A stretch of 61,620 bases of DNA from contig PJMF01000009.1 of assembly GCA_003173865.1 (NCBI GenBank), positions 1-61,620 of the forward strand, read 5' to 3'. The notes below the pieces were generated by a model. The model did not search any database and was not told the origin of the DNA. It saw nothing but the letters and a program-made list of their open reading frames with translations. The translations under genes and the position numbers were made by a program. Positions 40,340-56,476 of the stretch are shown in pieces. This DNA is from Minisyncoccota bacterium. GTDB taxonomy: Bacteria > Patescibacteriota > Microgenomatia > UBA1400 > PJMF01. The first letter of the stretch is position 1. Each line of letters starts with the position of its first letter.

Positions 40340-40435
40340 TAGGAATTACACAGGTTTCGAGAGACGACGATTGCACTAGTGTATCTGGAAATACTCACAC
40401 AGCTCTCTACGCTCTCGAAACCTGTGTAATTCCTA
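40340..40435. repeat. structured intergenic repeat, copy 1
   Basis: Perfect 24-bp IR (40340-40363 / 40412-40435) around core AGACGACGATTGCAC...AAATACTCACACAGCTCTC. Confidence 0.85.
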
Positions 40436-40451
40436 AATAAGAGAAAAAATT

Positions 40452-41084
40452 ATGTCGATTACACACCAATACGCCTATCGCAACATTACTATTTCTGGTT
40501 TACCAGGAAATGGCTCGACCACTTTACTGAACTCTTTACGCGAAGAATTGAAGTTTGATGGATGGAAAGGGTTTAGTGGTGGTGAGTTTATGCGCGCTTA
40601 CGCTGAAGAAAAAGGATTGATTGATCCAAGAGTTGGATCACATCACGATGCCGCGATCTACAGTGATGATTTTGATTGGCAAGTTGATATGGGCATGCGC
40701 GAGAAACTGGAGAGAGAAGAGTGTTGGATTATCGAATCGTGGCTTGCGGGATTTTTGGCGCAGGGAGTACCTGGCGTGCTCAAAGTGCTGGTCATTTGTA
40801 GTGAAGATGCTGTACGCATTGATCGTCTGATGAATCGCGATAATATCTCAGTTGAACAAGCAAAACAAAATATTCAGCAGCGGTATGAAGTTAACAGCAC
40901 CAAATGGAAACGTATGTATGCGAATCAATGGCATGACTGGGTAGTTTCACAAACTGGCAAAATGAGTGCCGATGACCCAATTGATTTTTGGCATCCAGCT
41001 CTTTACGATGTAGTAATAGATACATTTTCAACAAATAAGGCTGCCGCCTTACAACTGGTCCTCGATGCCGTCAAGAAAAACTAA
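40452..41084 (+). CDS. archaeal-type cytidylate kinase-like protein
   Basis: ITISGLPGNGSTT, SGGEFMR..A, D..VD, IIESWLAGF, YDVVIDT. Confidence 0.75.
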   Translation: MSITHQYAYRNITISGLPGNGSTTLLNSLREELKFDGWKGFSGGEFMRAYAEEKGLIDPRVGSHHDAAIYSDDFDWQVDMGMREKLEREECWIIESWLAGFLAQGVPGVLKVLVICSEDAVRIDRLMNRDNISVEQAKQNIQQRYEVNSTKWKRMYANQWHDWVVSQTGKMSADDPIDFWHPALYDVVIDTFSTNKAAALQLVLDAVKKN

Positions 41085-41730
41085 AAAAACGAATCATTTG
41101 GTCTTTTTTCCTTTGCTTATATTGCTGTTCGTGATGTGGGTCTTATATCGAATGTTGTTCCATTTTCCAGTTTGGTTCGATGAAACGATTGGTAAAGCCG
41201 TCTTTTTTGGTTTACCAGTATGGTTGTATATTTCACTTACTGGTTCACGTAGTATTAAAGAAACGTTTAGTCTCGATAAAATTACCCGTGGTTTATTTTT
41301 AGGAATTGCAGTGGGAGGAGTGTTTGGTTTTGTAGGGAGCTTCTCCACTTTTGTGGGTCGTCACGTGATTATTCAATCCGCACCACTCTTTTTGTCGAAT
41401 GCATTTTGGCAAGATTTCTTCTTAGCGTTAATGACTGGTTTTTGGGAAACATTATTTTTCTATTGCTGGGTGATGGTCGTCATTCAGGAAAAATTTTCGA
41501 AGTGGGTAGTGACGCAACAACTTATTGCGGTAACCATTATTTTCTTAGCGTTTCACTTACCAAACACAATTTTGCGTTTTCACACACCACAAATTATTAT
41601 TGGGCAAATTATATTATTAAGTTTCTTTTCACTGGGTCAATCGCTCCTTTTCTTAAAAGATCGCAATCTCTACGCCCTGACTCTTTCACAGGCAATTTGG
41701 GGAATGGTGCTTCTGGTTAGTACACGCTAA
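41065..41730 (+). CDS. CPBP (CAAX/Abi) intramembrane protease-like protein, motifs degenerate
   Basis: GFWETLFF (EE motif reduced), FLAFHLP, LSQAIWG (HxxxN lost); 7-8 TM. Confidence 0.65.
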   Translation: MPSRKTKKTNHLVFFPLLILLFVMWVLYRMLFHFPVWFDETIGKAVFFGLPVWLYISLTGSRSIKETFSLDKITRGLFLGIAVGGVFGFVGSFSTFVGRHVIIQSAPLFLSNAFWQDFFLALMTGFWETLFFYCWVMVVIQEKFSKWVVTQQLIAVTIIFLAFHLPNTILRFHTPQIIIGQIILLSFFSLGQSLLFLKDRNLYALTLSQAIWGMVLLVSTR

Positions 41731-42245
41731 AGCGAATGTTGAACAATCTGATCTTGTTCGATGATCTTGTCTATTTCTGAGCGGTTGGAATCTGTAAATT
41801 TAGGGCTGAGTTCTTTGAGTTGTTGGATGTGATAGAGAAGGGTTTTACTGAGGCGTTGGGTAACTGAACTGGGAGCTTGAAGGACTTGGGCATCGTGGAC
41901 GGCGTTTTGAAGATAATTTTCGGCTTTAAGGGCTGTAGTAAGGGCGAGACTTTCTTTGTTATCATTTAGGAGCTGCTGGGCATAGCCAAGACGTCGATTT
42001 GCGTACTCCATTTCAAGAAAAATTCTCTCTGAGTTAGGAGCTGTCTCAAGTTGAATCCGATCAATGGCCATTAACGCAGGATACATGAGGTTATCTGGAA
42101 GGATATCTTTACCAAAGTAAAGCTGTTTGCGCTCGGTAGTAGTCTTGTTTCCCGCATATACTGCTTGAACCTCAATGAGTGACAGAGCGAGGACGCCAAC
42201 GGCAAAAAACAAGGCAAGTGTAGAGAGTAATAAACGGGTCTTCAT
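41727..42245 (-). CDS. secreted helical protein (DUF5667-like)
   Basis: Signal peptide; ILPDNLMYP....DRIQL, YANRRL. Confidence 0.7.
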   Translation of the reverse strand: MKTRLLLSTLALFFAVGVLALSLIEVQAVYAGNKTTTERKQLYFGKDILPDNLMYPALMAIDRIQLETAPNSERIFLEMEYANRRLGYAQQLLNDNKESLALTTALKAENYLQNAVHDAQVLQAPSSVTQRLSKTLLYHIQQLKELSPKFTDSNRSEIDKIIEQDQIVQHSL

Positions 42246-42417
42246 AGAAGAAACGATAATCTTTGATTATACCCCGCTAGAGGAAAATGTAAAAGAGGGT
42301 TGGCCATTTTCGTACGCCTGGGGGTCATTTTTTGCTCCAAAACTGATCTATTTTGATGCTTTTCTTTTCATTGACCAAATACAGCTGACCGTGAGATTCT
42401 TACTACCCGGCAAACAA

Positions 42418-42465
42418 ACACAATATTTAGTGGTATATAATAAAAACATATACTAAATATAGTAT
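42418..42465 (+). promoter_or_regulatory. tandem NrdR boxes flanking the -10 of nrdR-nrdJ
   Basis: ACACAATATTTAGTGG (42418-42433) and ATACTAAATATAGTAT (42450-42465), 32 bp apart; TATAAT 42436-42441 lies between them. Confidence 0.85.
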
Positions 42466-42489
42466 TAGTAGCAACTTGGGAGAAATGCT

Positions 42490-54241: not shown

Positions 54242-54255
54242 CTTCAACACCCCCG

Positions 54256-54293
54256 TTGACAGAAATTTAGCAGTTGCATATACTAGCTGCTAG
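54256..54293 (+). promoter_or_regulatory. groESL sigma70 promoter overlapped by a variant CIRCE operator
   Basis: TTGACA(54256)-17 nt-TATACT(54279); TTAGCAGTT-N9-AGCTGCTAG at 54267-54293. Confidence 0.75.
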
Positions 54294-54371
54294 TTGCAGG
54301 TGCTGCTCAGCCTCGACTGAATTATCAAAAAAACTTGATTAAACAAGTAAAAAAACTTTAGAGGAGGTCTC

Positions 54372-54677
54372 ATGAAGGGAACTTTAAGTGTCTCTCAACT
54401 ACAACCGTTAGCAGGCTATGTGCTTGTTGAGCCTGCTAAAACTCAAAAGCAAACTGCTTCGGGGATTATTTTGCCAGATTCTCATGACGAAAAGCCACAG
54501 CATGGAACAGTCTTGGCTGTAGGTGGTGCAGTATATGTAGATGGGAAAGAGATTATGGCACCAGTCAAAAAAGGCGACCAAGTGATCTACAAAAAATGGG
54601 GTGGAAATGATTTTAAAATTGGGGATGTGGAGTATCAATTTTTAAAGTTTGAAGACATATTAGCAGTTATTAAGTAA
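54372..54677 (+). CDS. groES: co-chaperonin GroES
   Basis: LQPLAGYVLV, TASGIILPDS..EKPQ.GTVLAVG, VKKGDQV, EDILAV. Confidence 0.96.
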   Translation: MKGTLSVSQLQPLAGYVLVEPAKTQKQTASGIILPDSHDEKPQHGTVLAVGGAVYVDGKEIMAPVKKGDQVIYKKWGGNDFKIGDVEYQFLKFEDILAVIK

Positions 54678-54750
54678 CAGAGTCAGAAACACAGTTACCA
54701 CTTTGTAACTCTGAAACTCTGCAAACTTACATATATATAGAAGGAGAAAT

Positions 54751-56379
54751 ATGGCAGCAAAACAACTCGCATTCGGCGATAACGCTCGTCAAAAAATGTT
54801 AACTGGTATTAATAAATTGGCTTCAGCCGTGACGGTGACGCTTGGTCCAAAAGGCCGCAATGTTGCAATAGACAAATCATGGGGCGCACCAACTGTCCTT
54901 CACGATGGTGTTTCTGTCGCCAAAGAAATTAAACTCGAAGATCCATTTGAAAACATGGGTGCTCAGCTCGTCAAAGAAGCAGCCTCTAAAACCAATGACG
55001 CTGCAGGAGACGGTACCACCACCGCAACATTACTCGCCCAACAAATTTCTATAAAAGGTATGAAGTACGTGACCGCTGGTACCAACCCCATGATGATGAA
55101 GCGTGGTATCGACAAAGCAGTTGAAGCAGTCGTTGCCGAGATCCGTCGCTTAGCCAAACCAGTCAAAGAAAATGACTGGGAAAAAGTGGCCACCATCTCA
55201 GCACAAAATCCGATCATCGGTGCAAAAGTTGCCGAAGCGTTGAAAAAAGTTGGCAAAGATGGCGTTGTTGAGGTTGAAGAAGGTAAGACGATGGAAATTA
55301 CCATTGATCACCGCGAAGGAATGGAGTTCGACAAAGGGTATGCTTCACCATACTTCGTCACAAATCCAGATCAAATGGAAGCAGTGATCGAAAATCCATA
55401 TATCTTAGTGACTGACCAAAAAATTTCTTCAATTCAAGATCTGTTGCCTTTGCTGGAGAAATTAATGCAGGTGACGAAGAACTTTGTCATCATTGCCGAT
55501 GAAGTGGATGGCGAAGCATTGACCACACTCGTAGTAAATAAACTGCGTGGTACGTTCAATGTTCTGGCCGTCAAAGCTCCTGGATTTGGTGATCGTCGCA
55601 AAGCAATGTTGCAAGACATCGCGGTGTTAACTGGAGCAACGTTTATCTCGACTGATACTGGTCGTGACCTCAAGACAGCTGACGTTGCAGACATGGGTCA
55701 AGCTGACTCAGTTCGTGCTTCCAAAGACACTACACGTATCGTGGGTGGCAAAGGCAAGAAAAACGACATCGCCGCGCGCGTTGCGCAAATTGAAAATGAA
55801 ATTGAGAAATCAACTTCAAGTTTCGATACGGAAAAATTAGAAGAGCGCAAAGCAAAACTCACTGGCGGTGTCGCAGTTATCCAAGTTGGTGCCGCAACTG
55901 AAGTAGAAATGAAGGAGCTTCAAGAGCGCGTCAAGGATGCCAAAGGTGCAACCAAAGCCGCAATTGAAGAAGGCATTATTCCTGGCGGTGGAGTGACGCT
56001 TATTCAAGCGAAAAAAGTTTTGAGCAAAATCAAGACTGATTCTCAAGATGAGCAATCAGGAATTGATTTGATCGCTTCTGTGTTGGAAGAGCCGCTCAGG
56101 ATGCTTGCACGCAATGCCGGTACTGATGAAGGATGGGTCGTACGCGTTGTCGCTGACAAAAATGATCCTTCTTATGGTTTCAACGCGATGACCAATGAAT
56201 TTGGTGACATGGTGAAGGCCGGTGTGATTGAGCCAGCGAAAGTCGCAATTGCGTCGTTACAAAACGCCGCTTCAGTGGCTTCAATGATTTTGACGACAGA
56301 GTGCTTAATCACAGATCTTCCAGAAGAAAAGAAAGCTGCTCCAGCTGGAGGAATGGGTGGTATGGATGGGATGATGTAG
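54751..56379 (+). CDS. groEL: chaperonin GroEL
   Basis: [34 protein letters not shown] tail. Confidence 0.98.
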
Positions 56380-56384
56380 TCTAC

Positions 56385-56476
56385 GAAGGTAGACTCACTT
56401 CGAAAAGACGAGATCGCACCGAAGTCTTCGAAGATACTCACACAGCGCTCAAGTCTTTTCTCAGTGAGCTACCTTC
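56385..56476. repeat. structured intergenic repeat, copy 3 (3' of groEL)
   Basis: Stems GAAGGTAG/CTACCTTC, CTCACT/AGTGAG, GAAAAGAC/GTCTTTTC; core AGACGAGATCGCAC...AGATACTCACACAGCGCTCAAGTC. Confidence 0.85.

Follow-up and report, generated by a model that had tools for sequence, protein, structure and literature searches.

Hairpins past three stop codons

The window, the whole stretch of DNA analysed (61,620 nt), carries three hairpins of ~90 nt on the + strand, at the sites and distances from stop codons that had been predicted. Copy 1 (40340..40435, +) begins 5 nt past the stop of a 183-aa ORF (39783..40334, +), which ends in TGA followed by an in-frame TAA; the match of this ORF to the RnlA-toxin DBD was weak and under the cut-off. 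Copy 1 has a perfect 24-bp outer stem and lies 16 nt before the start of the next ORF; it is assigned to subtype B, since helix P3 has an additional base on its 5′ side. Copy 2 (46329..46418, +; subtype A) begins 8 nt past the TGA of nrdJ (42949..46320, +), which encodes a B12-dependent ribonucleotide reductase with a LAGLIDADG-domain intein. Copy 3 (56385..56476, +; subtype A), with one bulged A in its outer stem, begins 5 nt past the TAG of groEL (Cpn60, 542 aa; 54751..56379, +).

The fold is best described on copy 2 (+ strand). Helix P1 is formed by pairing of 46329-46340 with 46407-46418, P2 by pairing of 46344-46351 with 46396-46403, and P3 by pairing of 46352-46355 with 46390-46393; P3 encloses a central loop (46356-46389), and an AA bulge is present at 46394-46395. 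The best-conserved stretch of the family (46377..46399, +) runs from the 3′ strand of the centre into P3 and P2. The folding energies of copies 1, 2 and 3 were −47.8, −37.9 and −38.4 kcal/mol (z = −11.3, −4.8 and −5.1), and none of 200 shuffled sequences folded as well. The long hairpin and the common core that had been ascribed to every copy are both present.

Copy 3 lies between the groEL stop and the true terminator of this gene, a canonical 16-bp hairpin (56492..56527, +; −23.7 kcal/mol, z = −7.0) that runs into six U, and the original prediction was right to treat the two as separate. The repeat itself was rejected as an intrinsic terminator: a consensus terminator scan called none of the three copies, and no T run directly follows the hairpins (none after copies 1 and 3, and one that begins 8 nt downstream of copy 2).

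The repeat was also confirmed to be without an Rfam family. At the gathering thresholds of Rfam 15, the whole window yielded two tRNAs only, and loci L005 and L006 had no match. At E ≤ 10, copy 1 had 11 matches, all to miRNA precursors (12.7-36.9 bits vs. thresholds of 51-106), and the centre of copy 2 had three (E 1.6-3.8). Known Rfam ribozymes (hammerhead, twister, twister-sister, pistol, hatchet, hairpin and HDV-like) were rejected, as none reached its gathering threshold.

The repeat family and its distribution

The further copies that had been anticipated exist. In the 1.2-Mb genome (95% complete), model R1 gave 13 matches, corresponding to nine loci and four opposite-strand echoes, and the nine full copies are spread over seven contigs. 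At least five degenerate members are present in the same genome: a 'mini' copy with C25-type arms that lost the core but kept the hairpin, one whose core is reduced to its 3′ half between the arms, two solo 3′ halves, and a 25-bp stem around a different 85-nt centre. The unit has multiplied within this genome and reached unrelated sites, and copies have later decayed via internal deletions and half copies.

The repeat unit consists of a conserved centre of ~62 bp, in which P2 and P3 flank an asymmetric loop whose 3′ strand is the best-conserved part, and of an outer inverted repeat of 12-24 bp. The nine copies have at least four unrelated classes of outer arm, which are conserved only within the subfamilies C22/C25/C26 and w2/C8/C11. 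The claim that the outermost stems share no sequence stands for copy 1 vs. copies 2 and 3, but not family-wide, where a few arm classes are common to several copies; the arms thus travel with the element too. Between subfamilies, the centre is ~80-90% alike (an estimate from alignments) and the outer arms are unalignable, as expected under constraint on the centre; within the closest trio (C22, C25 and C26), arms and centre diverge about equally by hand count. When the nine full copies were inspected by eye for target-site duplications, C26 alone was flanked by a direct repeat (6 bp) and the other eight had none. No flank motif common to the copies was found.

Among all 139 other genomes of the same taxonomic family, three matched. 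Each has a single copy, which follows ArgRS in one, a GHMP kinase in another and a 93-aa ORF in the third, at sites non-orthologous to those occupied here. Model R1 matched one of 60 relatives, and model R2 matched one among 150 further genomes from the order; in 29 relatives the element was absent after groEL (0/29). The ACTCAC..AGC.CTC..AG.CT part of the centre (46377..46399 in copy 2) is largely kept in the copies of genomes G014 and G248 (20 of 24 bases in the latter, by hand count), and only fragments of it are left in the G010 copy, which matched the model with E = 2.7e-6 only. In the three foreign copies, conservation does not extend to the 5′ half of the centre. A pattern scan of public genome contigs returned 27 stretches, none of them supported by the model (best E 0.63); a metagenome scan returned one stretch, a GC-rich chance match; and viral-contig scans and blastn vs. 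a phage collection gave no match. The repeat family is almost confined to one genome.

Position and orientation of the copies are far from random. Seven of the nine full copies and all three foreign copies (10 of the 12 model-matched) lie 0-13 nt past a co-oriented stop, the seven of this genome at 1-13 nt. A crude null of random sites and random orientation gives a per-copy p of 0.046 and P(≥7 of 9) = 1.5e-8. The copy still adjoins the stop where the spacer is longer, at 8 of 58, 5 of 73 and 2 of 60 nt (arithmetic from spacer data); the other two full copies lie 5′ of genes and not past a stop. All 11 oriented members that could be placed are co-directional with a flanking gene, and only 9 of 11 agree with GC skew. 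In 8 of the 9 full copies the sense strand is the G-rich one, which presumably serves as lagging-strand template. The genes 5′ of copies, which include groEL, mreB, nrdJ and genes for a TrxB-like reductase and a pilin-like protein, are mostly housekeeping and probably highly expressed.

Origin of the arms and competing explanations

In the original prediction, the variable stems stay paired through selection on a folded RNA; this was not borne out. Of 237 stem pair cells, 224 are Watson-Crick, two are G-U, eight are A-C (three of them alignment slips) and three are other combinations; the outer helix has no G-U pair in 118 cells. The wobble-type cells (five real A-C vs. two G-U) favour the antisense strand, which also has the more stable fold in 10 of 10 copies (by 2.3-7.9 kcal/mol), although these cases are non-independent through the common core. 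The GCG/CGC variation, from which strand preference had been questioned, was seen in copy 2 and one foreign copy only and cannot settle the strand. Covariation is strong, but a DNA palindrome would be equally expected to show it. The decayed and truncated members and the sporadic, non-orthologous occurrence in the taxonomic family also speak against RNA-level selection on the stems.

The copy in G010, a genome of another genus, points to how an arm may arise. Here about 117 nt (hand count) separate the kinase stop from the next ATG, vs. 4-17 nt in four congeners with the empty site. The 5′ arm comprises the final 15 nt of the conserved coding sequence, the TAA and 4 further nt; the 3′ arm reverse-complements it, with an additional A. 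An arm that is an inverted copy of native flank was found in this copy only. For the nine copies of the genome studied, the closest relative available for empty-site tests has a best groEL identity of 87%, and a second such test, at the G248 copy, found the orthologue absent in two congeners. Since the stems are almost purely Watson-Crick and the G010 arm is inverted from native flank, templated copying of DNA (template switching in replication) is the best explanation of the varying stems, rather than compensation at the RNA level. The 'compensation' in the arms appears to be multi-base and possibly of indel type. Template switching is described as creating, perfecting and expanding inverted repeats (PMC8794818, PMC13100816, PMC8604942).

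A linked RAYT or TnpA gene, a companion considered in the original prediction, was not found in this genome. PF01797 (Y1/HUH, RAYT) had no match here or in G010, G015 and G147; PF07282 (TnpB) had none here, PF00078 (reverse transcriptase) none here or in G010 and G014, and PF00665, PF01609 and PF01548 none each in this 95%-complete genome. The only PF01797-positive genome of the five searched was G014, with one match, and it has one element copy. Two tyrosine recombinases are encoded in this genome and two in G010, with three matches each in G014 and G248; the two found here have high-scoring counterparts in G010, G014 and G248 and are taken to be a putative ordinary Xer pair. Three derivations were rejected on these grounds: a MITE from a DDE transposon (terminal repeats not conserved, no consistent duplication, and no parent transposase with PF00665, PF01609 or PF01548), a REP/RAYT or IS200/IS605 derivative (no PF01797 and no PF07282 in the genome), and a retroelement-derived repeat (PF00078 without match in the genome).

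We consider it probable, at roughly 60%, that the hairpins are a lineage-restricted, ~90-bp palindromic interspersed DNA repeat, an orphan of MITE/REP-like (also ERIC) type; among the options first offered, the REP/MITE-like unit fits best. The outer arms would be made, lengthened and kept perfectly complementary at the DNA level by intramolecular template switching in replication, with either arm, or its flank, serving as template for the other. The conserved centre may be a cis site required for spread, either recognised by an enzyme since lost or not assembled, or acting as a nucleating hairpin for template switching. The post-stop, sense-only placement could stem from an insertion bias linked to transcription or termination, or from survival only where gene signals are left unbroken. 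Rather unlikely in our judgment is a transposase-free repeat whose centre reaches new sites through template switching during replication or repair, with preference for positions just past stops of actively transcribed genes, and which then grows its stem by inverted copying of the gene end.

Another reading, which we hold possible but doubtful, is a cis-acting 3′-UTR RNA module, co-transcribed with the upstream gene, that by its long hairpin and conserved loop shields the mRNA 3′ end, insulates neighbours in compact operons, or binds a protein or RNase, and that possibly spread selfishly and was then retained. An RNA-level function also predicts that all placed members are sense-oriented, and a retained mRNA-end function fits the housekeeping, probably highly expressed genes upstream; the adjacency to stops even in longer spacers, the position of copy 3 ahead of the true groEL terminator, and a centre more conserved than the outer arms between subfamilies agree with it. 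This reading is at odds with the near-absence of G-U pairs and the better antisense fold, with decay that includes a member keeping its hairpin without the centre, with the two full copies upstream of genes, and with the sporadic, non-orthologous spread among relatives (0/29 after groEL, 3/139 in the family).

A folded single-stranded DNA site, either attC-like or a hairpin nicked or recognised by an HUH enzyme or tyrosine recombinase, with the centre as putative protein-binding part, would account for stems that behave as Watson-Crick DNA palindromes with arms templated from each other, for the single orientation directly past gene ends (as in attC), and for the G-rich sense strand; the genome also has two tyrosine recombinases. 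We judge it very unlikely, as conservation lies in the centre and not at the stem base, inspection of the flanks by eye showed no GTTRRRY-like end, the neighbouring genes are housekeeping ones at dispersed sites and not a cassette array, no Y1/HUH gene was found in the genome, and the recombinases are taken as the Xer pair. A new class of small self-cleaving ribozyme, with a fixed catalytic core in variable stems, is more improbable still. A conserved internal loop within variable helices in several copies is the architecture of small ribozymes, and, with no known class matched, the class would be new. Catalytic cores are usually invariant, but the 5′ half of the centre is unconserved in the three foreign copies; the stems lack G-U pairs, core-deleted and truncated members persist, and the 12 sequences yielded no tertiary pairing.

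If the palindromic DNA repeat is the right reading, a conserved core with covarying stems, the classic signature of a functional RNA, can also come from a re-templated DNA repeat; because arms are then re-templated in DNA, covariation alone overstates function, which calls for caution in RNA-motif discovery. The G010 copy provides a bacterial case in which the arm of a long hairpin is visibly inverted from the end of a coding sequence, and it lends weight to the view that perfect stems can come from template switching. The repeat also indicates that a compact genome, ~92% coding by a crude ORF call and with none of six tested transposase families, can host a growing repeat family limited to the sliver past stop codons. 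Should the sense-only, stop-proximal placement reflect function, the hairpins may set mRNA 3′ ends in a lineage-specific manner in small-genome bacteria; should transposase-free spread prove true, it would be a self-propagating way to make new structured 3′ ends in a minimal genome.

Comparison with known systems

attC sites are imperfect palindromes of 57-141 nt directly past a stop, in one orientation, that act as folded single strands; the R boxes at their stem base are conserved and the middle varies. In the present repeat this conservation pattern is reversed, and neither a cassette array nor an integron-type integrase was identified. Inspection of the flanks by eye revealed no R″/R′-like site.

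The likeness to template-switch hairpins (Monttinen and Loytynoja, 2022, PMC8794818; PMC13100816) is that the G010 arm reverse-complements adjoining native sequence and that the stems are perfect Watson-Crick ones. The events described in those studies are single-locus ones in rRNA genes or promoters, whereas here we see a dispersed repeat with a common centre, so template switching accounts for the arms and not for the arrival of the centre at new loci.

With REP/BIME elements and their RAYTs, and with IS200/IS605 palindromes, the repeat has in common that extragenic hairpins lie 3′ of genes and could act on mRNA ends, and spread through DNA-hairpin recognition is plausible for REP/BIME and the present repeat alike. 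REPs are described as 20-40 nt long, tagged with GTAG or CGTC, and usually present in more than 100 copies in a genome (PMC3733652, PMC2817692). The present repeat, in contrast, measures 90 nt, has 9-14 copies, and shows no tag at the 5′ ends by eye. A GTAG occurs inside an arm of copy 3.

Classical MITEs have conserved terminal inverted repeats recognised by a transposase, and a target-site duplication flanks each copy. In this family it is the centre that is conserved; the termini fall into at least four classes, a direct repeat flanks one of nine copies, and no parent IS or DDE transposase was found with the three profiles PF00665, PF01609 and PF01548.

ERIC/IRU, Correia (CREE), RUP and BOX elements and MITEs are imperfect palindromes of ~100 bp that are intergenic, co-transcribed and non-coding, with sporadic occurrence among relatives and decayed or truncated copies. 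The present repeat is alike in these respects and likewise has several to many copies (see also PMC3184786, PMC10969869). What sets the present repeat apart from the ERIC/MITE type is its placement, sense-oriented throughout and, with few exceptions, no more than 13 nt from a stop.

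Hairpins of the window and their relatives in the genome

Three ∼90-nt hairpins had been predicted just past stop codons on the + strand, and all three are present: copies 1, 2 and 3 (40340-40435, 46329-46418 and 56385-56476) start 5, 8 and 5 nt past the stops of ORFs 39783-40334, 42949-46320 and 54751-56379, respectively. Each consists of outer arms (helix P1), inner helices P2 and P3 and a conserved centre, and in a shuffle test (z = -11.3, -4.8 and -5.1) 0 of 200 shuffles folded as well. Pfam identifies ORF 42949-46320 as an intein-bearing, B12-dependent ribonucleotide reductase and ORF 54751-56379 as Cpn60/GroEL; ORF 39783-40334 gave a weak match to the RnlA-toxin DBD alone, below the cut-off. 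The intein (Intein_splicing, residues 541-925; the homing endonuclease LAGLIDADG_3, residues 776-821) lies within the gene adjoining copy 2, so that a second selfish element is found beside this copy. Contigs of three DNA runs, aligned to 39000-57500, covered it only thinly and carried no information on whether any copy was present or absent. At copy 1, one low-depth contig from DNA run X1 aligns on both sides of 39847-40479 and skips 631 nt. The skipped segment contains most of the RnlA/HEPN-like ORF plus copy 1, and in some related organism of the sample this segment may be missing or replaced.

The separate terminator proposed downstream of copy 3 is a canonical one (-23.7 kcal/mol, then six U). 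The hairpins match no family of Rfam 15: at gathering thresholds the whole window yielded two tRNAs only, and copy 1 and the copy 2 centre, scanned permissively, returned only miRNA-hairpin noise and matches with E of at least 1.6. Several small hairpins are possible in the central loop of each copy, in registers that differ between copies (12 sequences). A promoter in the core was considered and rejected, since 0 promoter-like sites fall inside any copy (35 such sites vs. 32.1 expected); one at 40310-40338 adjoins the start of copy 1.

Beyond these three, six more full copies were found in the genome holding the window (G000), on contigs C8 (-), C11, C20, C22, C25 and C26 (-); the motif scans took in all 32 contigs of the assembly (1.2 Mb, 95% complete). 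Covariance model R1, for which four copies were used, returned these nine full loci and no others (13 matches, 4 of them opposite-strand echoes). The loci fall into two subtypes, one of which has an additional base on the 5′ side of P3. An inverted-repeat census and blastn added degenerate members: a 'mini' copy on C26, with arms as in copy C25 and the whole centre deleted, a partial copy on C20 that keeps its arms but, of the centre, just the 3′ half, and two solo 3′ halves (C25 and C4). A 135-nt variant hairpin on C11 combines a 25-bp stem and family-like inner helices with a different 85-nt centre. The census listed 56 hairpins (stem ≥11 bp); 7 of them, the C11 variant counted, are perfect with a stem of at least 14 bp and a loop of at least 40 nt, and all 7 are family members. 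A hairpin at C10:1537-1585 (perfect 18-bp stem, 13-nt loop, tandem-like unit) lies 22 nt past a - strand stop and has no relation to this family. Arm classes are common to several copies (one class in C22, C25, C26, the mini copy and the C20 partial; another in copy 2, C8 and C11), suggesting that the extended hairpin itself can be the copied unit. Figures for arm-versus-centre divergence within subfamilies are hand counts.

Pairing of the stems and origin of an outer arm

In a model-based alignment of ten copies, 95.4% of the pair cells were paired and 18 of 24 pairs changed on both sides, and both pairing and double changes were far above those in shuffled and slid controls. Such a pattern is normally taken as RNA covariation, but the pair-type census points elsewhere. 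Among 237 cells, 224 were Watson-Crick, 2 were G-U, 8 were A-C, including 3 alignment slips, and 3 were other; in the outer helix, G-U accounted for 0 of 118 cells. Wobble-type cells lean to the antisense strand (5 vs. 2, too few to choose a strand), and the antisense strand folds better by 2.3-7.9 kcal/mol in 10 of 10 copies, although these comparisons are not independent of one another, the core being common to all. Relative to genes, every copy lies in sense, opposite to the strand favoured by wobble cells and folding.

An empty-site comparison was possible for the foreign copy of G010, a genome of the same taxonomic family. In four congeners of G010, 4-17 nt separate the stop of a GHMP kinase gene from the ATG of the next gene; the G010 spacer at the same place is about 117 nt (counted on the printed sequence). 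The G010 5′ arm comprises the final 15 coding nt, the TAA and a further 4 nt, and the C-terminus encoded there is conserved among the congeners. Apart from one extra A, the 3′ arm is this segment's reverse complement. The native 5′ arm, the inverted 3′ arm and the empty congener sites together indicate that the G010 outer stem arose when native flank was copied in inverted form. Replication template switching acts in this way: it is reported to make perfect stems in one event, to 'fix' pairing and to expand inverted repeats (PMC8794818, PMC13100816, PMC8604942). The inverted repeat characteristic of template switching was found in the one copy open to comparison (G010); for the copy of G248, a second carrier, the neighbouring protein was not found in the 2 congeners searched, and G014, the third, is the sole member of its genus among the genomes analysed. 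In our reading of the arms by eye, template switching would also explain why copies C22 and C26 seem to differ by a compensated indel. At 56378-56400 a small nested palindrome (7-bp stem, GAAG loop) overlaps copy 3 at its start as well as its 5′ flank, and may be what remains of another template-switch event.

Placement after stop codons and distribution among relatives

Seven of the nine full copies lie 1-13 nt past the stop of a co-oriented gene and the remaining two precede a co-oriented gene by 45-46 nt; the C11 variant and 3 of 3 foreign copies likewise adjoin or overlap a co-oriented stop. A crude null of random intergenic site and orientation, which uses crude home-made ORF calls (7.8% intergenic DNA, median spacer 44 nt), gives 0.046 per copy and P(≥7 of 9) = 1.5e-8. 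Stop proximity is partly forced by the tiny spacers; in three longer ones, of 58, 73 and 60 nt, the copy still hugs the stop (8, 5 and 2 nt away). All 11 placed members are oriented with the genes, 9 of them also in agreement with GC skew, and on these counts replication strand and gene direction cannot be separated as the cause of orientation. The genes upstream of the copies are the RnlA/HEPN-like ORF, nrdJ, groEL, a TrxB-like reductase, mreB, a pilin-like gene and a hypothetical gene. No shared motif was found in the copy flanks, and a flanking direct repeat was present at one copy only.

The stops at the seven sites are five TGA, two TAG and no TAA (genome-wide 26%, 20% and 54% among 777 long ORFs), a skew that was noticed post hoc; 3 of 3 foreign copies follow TAA. 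A read-through or recoding signal was rejected, the frame past the stop being open for 0, 82, >130, 28, >130, 1 and 13 codons and the core lying in varying frames. The two frames of >130 codons, behind the groEL TAG (56377-56545) and the mreB TGA (C11:2685-2790), run through the element into the next gene, and are taken as chance, the other five closing after 0-82 codons.

Covariance model R1 found a match in 1 of 60 relatives. A second model, built from ten sequences, matched 2 of 40 genomes of the taxonomic family, 3 of 139 when all its other genomes were taken and 1 of 150 other genomes of the order; searches over more than 40 genomes were run with Infernal's stricter filters, so weak matches may be missed. 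In all, the scans took in 139 genomes of the taxonomic family and about 130 others of the order. The carriers, G014, G010 and G248, have one copy each, and those of G010 and G248, detected only at E about 3e-6, keep ordered family blocks (e.g., in G248 the conserved 3′ strand agrees at 20 of 24 bases). These foreign copies sit behind ArgRS, the GHMP kinase and a 93-aa ORF, and the same genes are without a copy in G000. Conversely, the element was never found after groEL in 29 relatives, where ordinary terminators stand, some with an extra unrelated hairpin. An exact-pattern scan of a genome contig collection returned 27 stretches, mostly from high-GC bacteria, with model support for 0 of 27; a scan of metagenome contigs gave 1 stretch, a GC-rich chance match, and two scans of viral contigs and a blastn search of a phage collection gave 0. 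No description of the hairpin element was found in the literature searched. The element family is therefore close to private to G000 and its sites are not inherited, which argues for a dispersed, recently multiplied repeat and not an ancient regulatory RNA.

Hairpins of other kinds occur past groEL in the order. In G006 (L048) and G041 (L072), of different families, a post-groEL hairpin starts with the same 12-13 nt directly after the stop, and the first 60 nt past the groEL stop in G015, G013 and G014 also hold an extra non-terminator hairpin. Post-stop hairpins may be a wider habit of the order. Kinship of the G015 hairpin with the arm of copy C20 was rejected, the likeness being a single 9-mer judged to be chance.

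Readings of the element and comparison with known systems

The proposal that selection on a folded RNA keeps the stems paired is not supported, given 2 G-U in 237 cells, the decay products, the inverted-copy arm in G010 and sites without orthology. We favour, with a probability of about 0.6, an orphan palindromic repeat of the MITE/REP-like kind, with arms that are kept and extended at the DNA level, a centre that would be conserved because it is the cis-acting part, and a placement that is filtered or biased to just past stops. A 3′-UTR RNA module, possibly exapted from the repeat, would account for the sense-only orientation, the stop proximity and the housekeeping neighbour genes, but is unlikely in view of the pair-type census, the decay products and the absence of the element at orthologous sites. 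It is distinctly improbable that the hairpin is a folded-ssDNA recombination or nick site, and a new ribozyme, against which the unconserved 5′ half of the centre in the foreign copies speaks, is the least credible.

How the palindromic repeat spreads can be outlined by inference only. Y1/HUH, reverse transcriptase, TnpB zinc ribbon, rve, DDE_Tnp_1 and IS110 gave 0 matches each in G000 (95% complete), and the same transposase-family searches were positive in 3 to 9 of 14 control genomes; no linked RAYT/TnpA gene, for which the original prediction proposed a search, was found there. G000 has two tyrosine recombinases, with high-scoring counterparts in G010, G014 and G248. A parent IS with the same ends was sought by a degenerate arm search and rejected, as scattered chance matches alone were returned. 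The mobilising enzyme may be lost or unassembled, or may have come from a phage or plasmid; alternatively, the repeat may spread by template switching or recombination. G014 carries one Y1 (IS200/IS605-type) transposase (L083, C17:30117-30473), and G147 a reverse transcriptase in a 422-aa open frame (L084, C5:12528-13103); both families are absent from G000, the genome with most copies.

The element serves as a case study of covariation that arises without selection on RNA, and it poses the puzzle of why, in a minimal genome, the narrow strip just past stop codons is targeted. It differs from intrinsic terminators in having no U tract directly behind the hairpin. As for the REP/MITE-like unit originally suggested, a dispersed palindromic repeat fits best, whereas the tested defining features of MITEs and REP/RAYT elements are absent: unlike MITEs, it has no conserved termini, target-site duplication or parent IS, and it differs from REP/RAYT elements in size, tag and copy number and in the lack of a Y1 gene in G000. 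The element works most like the small palindromic repeats of the ERIC, Correia and RUP type.
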